DNA of 64,000 bases from Nitrospinaceae bacterium (GTDB lineage: Bacteria > Nitrospinota > Nitrospinia > Nitrospinales > Nitrospinaceae): NCBI GenBank assembly GCA_965237905.1, contig OZ250172.1:1024001-1088000 (forward strand), written 5' to 3'. Made by a program: the position numbers and the translations under genes. Below, piece after piece: positions 24,864-26,402 of the stretch; positions within the stretch are counted from its first letter, which is position 1, and each line of letters opens with the position of its first letter. The notes beneath the pieces are model-generated. The model searched no databases. It had not been told where the DNA came from and saw only the letters and a list, made by a program, of their open reading frames with translations.

Positions 24864-25193
24864 ACGGACTCCTAAGGCGAGTTCACTTTAAAAATCTATT
24901 TTAAAGGAATTTTTGCCCGGGGCCTACACCTAAAGTGGGGTCCGGTTTGCCTTTTTGCCATTTTTTTCAAACGCTTAACACCAGAAAAACCCCTAAAACC
25001 CGTAGTCAAGGAGCCGGCAAATTCTACGCCTAACTATTTTACTTATGTAATTTTTGGGCGTATTCGAATGATATTCTTTGATATACCAAATATAATAACG
25101 GCGGACCCTGAGGCCTCGGGCTTTTATTCCTCGCCTGGATCATTGGTATTTTTAAAATTCCCAACGAATCCCACAAAAAAGGGGGACACTAAA

Positions 25194-25811
25194 ATGGAAT
25201 GGCTGGATCAAGATAAGGATACCCTGGACTTTTTAGTCCGACAAAGACGTAACTTGATGATCGCGAGCATAATGCTTTTTCTCGTAAAAGGTCATGGGCT
25301 TCATCCTATAGCGAGCGGGGATCCTGAGATGACTATATTAGGATATAAGTTTAGTTTCGCAACCTCCATTGATGTGCCTAATATCCTGACCTTAGCTGTC
25401 CTCTACTTTATTATTCGTTTTGCCCAGTATTTCCAAACATTAAAAGGAGGTTATATAAAAAAAACGCTCAGAGAACAGAGCGCTGATTATGTCAAAAATT
25501 TAGCAAAAAAATCTTTCGTTAGTTCAAAAATTCAAAAGGGGGCTTTGAAGGTCGAAGTCAGAGATTCGGAAATTACTCGCGTTGATCCGTATGAAATCAA
25601 AATTAGTTCTTGGATCGAAAAGAAACCTAACCAACACCACGGTGAGGAAAGGGTGGTTACATTAAATAAATGGGAGCGATTTCGCGTTTCTTTTTATGCT
25701 TGGCGGCAAGTCATCAACTATACTCCTATTTTTACTGAGTTTATTCTTCCTGTTTTCTTTGGGTTAGGCGCTTCCGGTTATTATTTTTCTAAAATGACGA
25801 TTATATTTTAA
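25194..25811 (+). CDS. hypothetical membrane protein (AT-rich)
   Basis: GGGGGA RBS before ATG 25194; three hydrophobic segments. Confidence 0.6.
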   Translation: MEWLDQDKDTLDFLVRQRRNLMIASIMLFLVKGHGLHPIASGDPEMTILGYKFSFATSIDVPNILTLAVLYFIIRFAQYFQTLKGGYIKKTLREQSADYVKNLAKKSFVSSKIQKGALKVEVRDSEITRVDPYEIKISSWIEKKPNQHHGEERVVTLNKWERFRVSFYAWRQVINYTPIFTEFILPVFFGLGASGYYFSKMTIIF

Positions 25812-25967
25812 AGTAAGAGAGTTTTATGGAAGAACTGAAAAAGAAGCTCACTTCCGAAATACTCCCCGAATTCACCAAAGGCGGAGATTCCGGGCGATCC
25901 TCCGCCTGGTCCGGGACCAGATTCTCTCTTGGCAGAATCAACACACCAAATACAGGTGAGAAATCGG

Positions 25968-25995
25968 TTGACAGTGCTCTATATAGTGCTATCTT
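25968..25995 (+). promoter_or_regulatory. sigma70 promoter
   Basis: TTGACA-N16-TATCTT with extended -10 TG. Confidence 0.55.
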
Positions 25996-26000
25996 GAGGC

Positions 26001-26402
26001 TGTCCTAATTATGGGGCCCTCAACAAAAGGAGTTTTATGCGGTTCTTGAAGCTCATATTGAGGCCTCCCTTGCTCGCTCGGTAGTTGGTGCTACCGATAG
26101 TTGAACCACGAGGGACGGACATCGAAGCACCCAAAAGATTGGCAATCCTCAAGGACACCTCACGATTTTATAGGATTATGAGAACTTTGAGGACCCTGCG
26201 CCAAGTGGTGCACCAACACCATCGGGTCCAATATAAAACCCGGTTATAATAGTTTTCCCCGTTACGGGACGGCTTGGATATGGTGAGAGGGTTCGTAGGT
26301 TGAGCCGGTTTGCTTTGTGGCAAGTGGTGATAGCTTGGTTGCTACACCAGCAGGCCATGTTGCTGAATCGAAGTGAGTGCGACCCTCAGCTTCACTTTTT
26401 TT
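26001..26402 (+). ncRNA. candidate large structured ncRNA (GOLLD-like 3' architecture)
   Basis: About 9 helices with G-U pairs favouring the + strand, terminal T-loop-like hairpin and T7 tract; no long + strand ORF. Confidence 0.5.

Follow-up and report, generated by a model that had tools for sequence, protein, structure and literature searches.

To our knowledge, no job is known for the bacterial RNAs GOLLD, ROOL (which we take to be Rfam family RF03087) and raiA, the structures of which have been solved. tmRNA, a pseudoknotted RNA of 350-400 nt with a short internal reading frame, acts on ribosomes. In the accessible parts of the literature, GOLLD (RF02032) and ROOL are described as stand-alone, patchily distributed, multi-helix bacterial RNAs without assigned function in which kissing loops and pseudoknots occur (PMC12286853, PMC12990946, PMC5737381); ROOL has ~581 nt, six junctions and three pseudoknots (PMC5737381) and GOLLD has been reported to pull down ribosomes (cited in PMC12286853). 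The raiA motif RNA is compact, with two pseudoknots and no assigned function (PMC12968392, PMC5737381), and type I toxin-antitoxin mRNAs such as hok, aapA1 and kin are mobile messages of 150-400 nt with a buried ribosome site and long-range pairing (PMC8594479).

The RNA presented here has part of these traits in common with each of them, its buried ribosome site and any action on ribosomes being predictions. It occupies positions 25996-26402 (+ strand, ~400 nt) of the window, that is, of the whole 64,000-nucleotide stretch of DNA that was analysed, which belongs to a complete Nitrospinaceae genome of 3.09 Mb. Unlike GOLLD and ROOL, it matches neither model, measures 320-410 nt in its copies against ~580 and 700-830 nt, lacks the tRNA/prophage context at the window's copy and carries a conserved Shine-Dalgarno sequence and mini-ORF, which are not among the features described in the accessible parts of PMC12286853, PMC12990946 and PMC5737381. 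A motif search of the ROOL alignment in the available supplement of PMC12286853, which is gapped and partial, gave 0 matches. Two short words of the RNA recall, by eye, the C. acetobutylicum raiA sequence; on the other hand, the raiA model gives no match, raiA belongs to other phyla, its closing stem P1, which joins both ends, is missing here, and its linker UUAGA(C/A)GUAA is absent by eye from the present copies. In contrast to tmRNA, no tRNA-like domain is common to the copies (a tRNA-like reading of the RNA ends was tried and fails in the second copy), and the frame is equipped with a Shine-Dalgarno sequence and a start of its own. The RNase P model gave no match either, and both tmRNA, of normal type, and RNase P RNA are encoded elsewhere in the same genome. 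By these comparisons, the RNA appears closest to the stand-alone ornate RNAs in anatomy and spread, yet it fails the tests for GOLLD, ROOL and raiA.

Copies and conserved fold

The initial annotation of this region had proposed a stand-alone, highly structured RNA of ~400 nt with pseudoknots on the + strand, and every sequence that it listed was found in place. Folding energy compared with shuffles, one of the checks it had suggested, gave z = -3.2 on the + strand and -2.2 on the - strand; however, 3 of 49 random 410-nt windows of the genome also reach z -3.2, so that energy is weak proof alone and the case rests on relatives. The homologue search that it had also called for gave four further copies with covarying helices on the + strand, which support its proposal. 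The five copies, of ~320-410 nt, were found in 4 of the 120 genomes of the phylum and in three families, every copy at a different locus, a count to be taken as a lower bound as the searches are insensitive and the genomes incomplete. The first relative came from BLAST over the 120 genomes. The second copy lies in a congener (G015) and is 67% identical to the window's over 297 bases, compared with 73-85% for flanking genes between the two genomes. The third copy (L152), in the same congener after groEL, was reached by a weak match of a model built from the 5' part, and the fourth and fifth, in two other families (G031 and G035), by BLAST with the third copy through their 5' parts only. Copies three to five form one subgroup, in which the partner loops and the 3' strands of the long-range pseudoknot PK1 lie outside the stretch through which each copy was found, and the window's copy and the second are the closest pair.

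Other candidates from these searches were rejected. Models R1 and R2, run over 120 and 39 genomes, gave two weak matches, of which L152 is real and L134 a chance match inside a gene. Model R3 over 120 genomes gave 20 weak matches, none of the 20 with the loop-loop contact, and it is insensitive since it missed the fourth and fifth copies. The weak BLAST matches obtained with the third copy as query (L194-L196) are not members, and neither are the weak model matches L170 (G118) and L174 (G119), in another family, in which AACTCA/TGAGTT arms, short and repeated, precede the start of a gene. No Rfam family matched any of the five copies (for the window's copy at curated thresholds and at E up to 10), the third copy giving only low scores on its terminator hairpin in cmscan. 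The literature search found no description of this RNA; subscription papers and further supplements may bear on the point.

In an unbiased test of all helices common to the two closest copies, 4 on the + strand had at least 6 bp and at least 2 compensatory changes. 800 permutations gave 0.55 such helices on average and never more than 3, and the - strand has 1. The drawn structure of these two copies (55 pairs, 13 compensatory) was not counted as a test because it was derived from both sequences. The loop-loop contact is formed by 6/6 pairs in all five copies with different letters (a bulged base occurs in one copy and a G-U pair in one), and 0 of 20 non-cognate loop pairs reach 6. PK1 is likewise complete (7/7 pairs) in all five copies with different letters, 2 of 20 non-cognate combinations reaching 7, among copies of which two have the same 3' strand. 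The third copy shows a similar hairpin with another loop, a complementary loop 99 bases downstream and the pseudoknot in other letters, contacts that arise by chance in 4% (loop-loop) and 1.4% (pseudoknot) of shuffles of those regions. Helices H3, H4, H7 and H9 are present in all five copies, while H1 and the long words conserved between the two closest copies are not family-wide. On this comparison, the region 25996-26402 is a real, uncatalogued structured RNA gene and founds a family.

Comparison of the copies showed a fold of two domains, one of several helices on the 5' side and a hairpin domain on the 3' side, held together by the loop-loop contact and, over a range of 300 nt, by PK1, these contacts being of a kind that covariation cannot assign to one molecule or to two. 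The 5' domain is closed by H1 (25997-26004 with 26268-26275; 8 bp, 2 compensatory and 3 one-sided changes), a helix that was seen in no copies but the two closest. H3 (26066-26070 with 26111-26115, spanning 26066-26115), with a 4-bp core in five of five copies, encloses the H4 hairpin (26078-26097), whose loop at 26085-26090 is the first kissing loop of the 6-bp contact. After a hairpin of variable length, H5 (26146-26193), drawn from comparison of the copies, the H6/H7 hairpin (26200-26229) presents the second, complementary kissing loop at 26211-26216; H6 is weak in the window's copy, with 3 clean pairs. The 3' domain (26282-26396) is a long hairpin closed by 26282-26286/26392-26396 and by H9 (26287-26292/26382-26387), from which the 3' strand of PK1 (26372-26378) is looped out to pair with the 5' strand at 26072-26078. 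The two closest copies differ in aligned 4-base palindromes, AGCT at 26332-26335 of the window and GGCC in L003, which sit partly in a stem. Such a switch is of the kind reported for the self-pairing loops of OLE in the accessible part of PMC12286853.

The ends are less well fixed. A U-tract (26396-26402) is the likely 3' end and coincides with the right edge of the insertion described below; 4 of its 7 T are also present in the relatives' empty site. Upstream, the sigma70 promoter of the initial annotation exists as a candidate site (TTGACA, 16 nt, TG-x-TATCTT; 25968-25995, + strand; 10/12 plus TG), but sites this good number 2 in 1.4 kb against 1.3 expected, which alone is not above chance. 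The nearest copy has a weaker promoter-like site (8/12) at nearly the same offset. Transcription from the candidate would begin at about 26002, within H1, a helix with covarying pairs upstream of that point, which leaves the true 5' end uncertain.

The 13 helices (70 pairs) of the initial annotation, predicted without a homologue, were scored through an automatic alignment to the nearest copy, in which 30 pairs are the same, 8 show one-sided and 10 compensatory changes, 21 are broken and 1 falls in a gap. TCGGTAG/CTACCGA, TCCTCAAGG/CTTTGAGGA, the TCCC core and the hairpin at 26206-26221 are kept, and GGACCC/GGGTCC is kept once re-registered, although the wider family favours another register. 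CCC/GGG, CGGCTT/GAGCCG, TTGC/GCAA and the TGGTG/CACCA at 26325 are lost in the nearest copy. The terminal TGAG/CTCA hairpin, read as T-loop-like, has 2 of 4 pairs broken and its strand is used by the covarying PK1 instead; the suggested AACCC/GGGTT pseudoknot, in which 1 of 5 pairs is broken, survives only via G-U pairs and shows no compensatory change. The loop-loop contact (26085-26090/26211-26216) and PK1 were both missing from that list.

Insertion sites, neighbours and spread

In the window, the RNA has a cytidylyltransferase-like gene on one side and a convergent nitroreductase gene on the other. It belongs to a low-GC insertion of 1.45 kb (24940-26392, no strand) that was delimited by comparison with congeners and holds a membrane-protein gene besides the RNA. 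The site is empty in 4 of the 5 congeners compared; the fifth has another cassette there, the largest gene of which resembles two phage families without assigned function. This slot is a cassette site (window 24940-26392; L135, G016:C83:55000-58600), in which G016 carries three other small membrane-protein genes and has two short segments in common with the window (24940-25096 and 25826-25863), as if cargo had been swapped between fixed linkers. The cargo gene beside the RNA (25194-25811, + strand) encodes a 205-aa protein without named family, which is not the partner of the RNA: homologues occur in 4 other genomes of the 120, and no RNA copy was found at the three best of these loci. No family was found for this protein in Pfam, PHROG or PADLOC; a profile search gave 21 remote matches, one a lectin (likely false), with a conserved RQRRN motif, and its Atlas neighbours include a SLATT-like name at low recognition. 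The neighbours of the insertion are housekeeping genes, the nearest tRNA within the window is 24 kb off, and no tRNA or prophage gene was found near this copy, a context that the initial annotation rightly called unlike that of GOLLD.

The site of the second copy is empty in the window genome and at least two others, and that of the third in the window genome and two others; by this comparison with congeners, the three loci are insertions. At the G015 site of the second copy, G016 carries a different insertion of 1.8 kb (L053/L056, G016:C8), in which no RNA copy was found. The 650-base insertion of the third copy is flanked by two near-identical terminator hairpins (L152 1945-1915 and 1300-1275, minus strand) where congeners have one, an arrangement that resembles duplication of a target at the groEL terminator. 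A transposase gene (rve and HTH_38 domains; L192 657-1814), presumably IS30-like, ends about 60 bases before the fourth copy and may have cut off that copy's promoter. The fifth copy lies between a convergent lipase gene and divergent genes. Downstream of the RNA, two copies face a convergent gene, two are followed by a terminator hairpin, and one by hairpins and the contig end; a co-oriented partner gene directly downstream was found in 0 of the 5.

A distribution as sporadic and cassette-like as this suggests that the RNA is carried as cargo by phages or other mobile DNA. No viral copy of the RNA was found in the phage, plasmid or viral-contig searches: BLAST of phages and plasmids gave no match, and patterns from the two closest copies gave 0, 29, 0, 15, 32, 0 and 0 matches in viral contigs, all judged chance. 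One pattern scan of metagenomes gave 2 matches, both chance, and one of genomes gave 20, of which 19 were chance and 1 identical to the second copy. The scan patterns are absent from copies three to five, so that the blank scans are uninformative on the range of the family. A viral scan for a word of GOLLD likewise gave no match. Among sequencing runs no holder of the RNA was listed, and contigs of two runs, probably from the source sample, show no joint.

The ribosome-binding site and the mini-ORF

A Shine-Dalgarno sequence and a start codon precede a frame of 15-23 codons in all five copies. In the window's copy, the Shine-Dalgarno sequence (26026-26032) matches the genome's own 16S tail over 7 nt and is followed by a mini-ORF of 15 codons (MRFLKLILRPPLLAR; 26037-26084), which crosses the 5' strands of H3, PK1 and H4 and stops just before the kissing loop. 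The absence of a long ORF on the + strand, as first annotated, thus holds, but this conserved frame had been overlooked. In copies one to five, the match to the 16S tail measures 7, 6, 10, 7 and 10 nt, whereas among random 18-mers of the genome a 6-nt match occurs in 2.2% and a 9-nt match in 0.013%. Also in favour of the site, that of the third copy lies in a part not aligned by the model. The fourth and fifth copies were found through the Shine-Dalgarno arm, so that their sites are not independent. The frames, of 15, 15, 23, 20 and 16 codons, pass over the 5' strands of PK1 and H4 in every copy.

The two closest copies have three ATG frames in common on the + strand and none on the - strand. 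One of the three has a Shine-Dalgarno sequence in both copies, with the same frame and stop, and 2 of 5000 column shuffles yielded a common ATG frame with matches of at least 6 nt in both, in a test devised once the site had been seen. The other tiny frames common to these copies, 26011-26049 and 26280-26303, are both without a clear Shine-Dalgarno sequence; one keeps its frame through a 3-base indel and the other has 7 codons. The two subgroups differ in frame, length and stop, and across the family the peptide is not conserved, a weak likeness being kept inside each subgroup.

In predicted folds the ribosome site is mostly paired. A predicted hairpin at 26010-26039 of the window would sequester part of the Shine-Dalgarno sequence together with the start codon's A (alternatively, pairings with 26049-26063 would do so), and in copies three to five the start codon lies inside a small hairpin. 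The Shine-Dalgarno arm could also pair with the H3/PK1 tract in all five copies (-4.5 to -8.1 kcal/mol), and this pairing is present in some minimum-energy folds. For the window's copy and the second, local hairpins rather than the tract account for most of the predicted burial, which is less stable in the second. When pairing of the ORF was forbidden, the predicted 3' domain hardly changed, in a program that cannot form pseudoknots. Since the Shine-Dalgarno sequence is present in all five copies, the frames vary and the site can pair with the H3/PK1 tract, we infer that selection acts on the site and not on the peptide, and that the loading of ribosomes may be coupled to tertiary folding.

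Possible roles and their meaning

The reading that we favour, with a probability of roughly 0.45 for the whole of it, is a stand-alone RNA, horizontally acquired at unrelated sites with neighbours that are not conserved, in which compact fold and ribosome loading are coupled and which would act on ribosomes and not via its peptide. The gene would have its own promoter and 3' end, the RNA being the product and the ribosome its partner. In one state, the Shine-Dalgarno arm would be hidden, either within a local hairpin or by pairing with the pyrimidine tract from which H3/PK1 are otherwise built; in the other, the tertiary contacts would occupy this tract and the small subunit could dock, the small hairpin still hiding the start codon. 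A translating ribosome would have to melt PK1, H4 and the kissing loop, and loading and compact fold would thus control each other. The RNA would then most likely be a decoy or holder of ribosomes, or translation would be a switch for its own fold and lifetime. Against this reading it must be said that the copies are only five, three of them in one subgroup, that the pairing of a purine-rich strand with a pyrimidine tract could be purely structural, that the promoter candidate conflicts with H1, and that ribosome binding is a prediction from sequence.

An RNA-only multimer like GOLLD or ROOL, with the loop-loop contact or PK1 formed between molecules and the ribosome site incidental or secondary, is unlikely. 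Covarying kissing loops are indeed the bridges of the GOLLD, ROOL and OLE assemblies as described in the accessible part of PMC12286853, the 3' domain of GOLLD (375 nt) alone forms a decamer according to that of PMC12990946, and covariation would look the same for contacts between molecules. Nevertheless, at least five bridges per chain are given for those RNAs (PMC12286853, accessible part) as opposed to two long-range contacts here, no tRNA or prophage gene lies near the window's copy, and the Shine-Dalgarno sequence of all five copies would be left unexplained. A compact or divergent GOLLD itself, the identity first suggested, is highly improbable despite a size near that of the GOLLD 3' domain and two short words that resemble env-38 by eye. 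In cmscan, no GOLLD, ROOL, OLE or raiA match was obtained with the window's copy and two others (E up to 10) or with the last two (E up to 1), and the Rfam GOLLD model (RF02032, 416 positions) found nothing in the whole genome at E up to 10. The order of 3' words that had suggested GOLLD is reversed in env-38, where ATATGGTG stands in the last 25 bases, after GAGAGTAGGTT, and from which CTGAAT and the GxGTGCRA loop are absent (one sequence, by eye, in the accessible part of PMC12286853 supplement 1); GATATGGTGAG and CTGAAT are absent from the three more distant copies and are consequently not family motifs. As judged by models and words, the RNA is not GOLLD.

Explanations in which the RNA serves a peptide or a gene fare worse than the multimer. 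A translationally silenced small-peptide message resembling a type I toxin mRNA is distinctly unlikely: its hallmarks as listed in the accessible part of PMC8594479 (150-400 nt, buried Shine-Dalgarno sequence, long-distance pairing) are matched by predicted folds and covariation, occurrence is patchy and mobile, and the two closest copies have the same frame and stop, but peptides of 15, 15, 23, 20 and 16 residues that differ in frame and sequence between subgroups are too short and too little conserved for toxins of 20-60 residues (PMC8594479, same part), and an antisense promoter-like site of at least 9/12 occurs in 1 of 5 copies by a consensus scan, which misses promoters. That the RNA is the orphaned leader of a lost or variable gene, acting in cis as a riboswitch or ribosome-driven attenuator, is improbable. 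This reading could draw on the overlap of the mini-ORF with a strand that pairs with the 3' end, on a GAAG/CTTC hairpin that could form instead ahead of the U-tract in the two closest copies and on the frequency of pseudoknots in leaders; it would, however, require five independent losses, there being no co-oriented gene directly after the RNA in any copy, and the ribosome site is at the 5' end and not the 3'. Similarly improbable, if not slightly more so, are silent relics of phage or island DNA, with a structure selected in the donor and idle in the present hosts, as might be thought from the occurrence in only 4 of 120 genomes, the transposase gene just upstream of one copy and the phage-like gene in the window's slot in a congener. 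Every core helix and both contacts are intact in all five copies and promoter-like sites precede the two closest ones; moreover, a relic would alter where the RNA acts, not what it is.

The favoured reading of a ribosome-directed RNA can be carried further, to a doubtful proposal: mobile bacterial RNAs of a new class that would capture ribosomes, in which a near-perfect Shine-Dalgarno sequence would be freed when the kissing loop and PK1 form, the start codon staying hidden, so that the folded RNA, possibly a multimer, would hold small subunits, or ribosomes that have stalled, and travel as phage-borne or defensive cargo. If ribosome capture is true, ornate RNA folds would be linked to a testable target and the class would be new in kind.

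Taken together, the family belongs with the large structured RNAs without assigned function and is itself uncatalogued. It is smaller than RNAs of the GOLLD, ROOL and raiA type, with two contacts defined by covariation, and its conserved ribosome-binding site, with a frame crossing both contacts, is a built-in handle that makes the mechanism testable in vitro. For the Nitrospinaceae and their kin, it means an RNA gene without protein partner that arrives repeatedly at unrelated sites.
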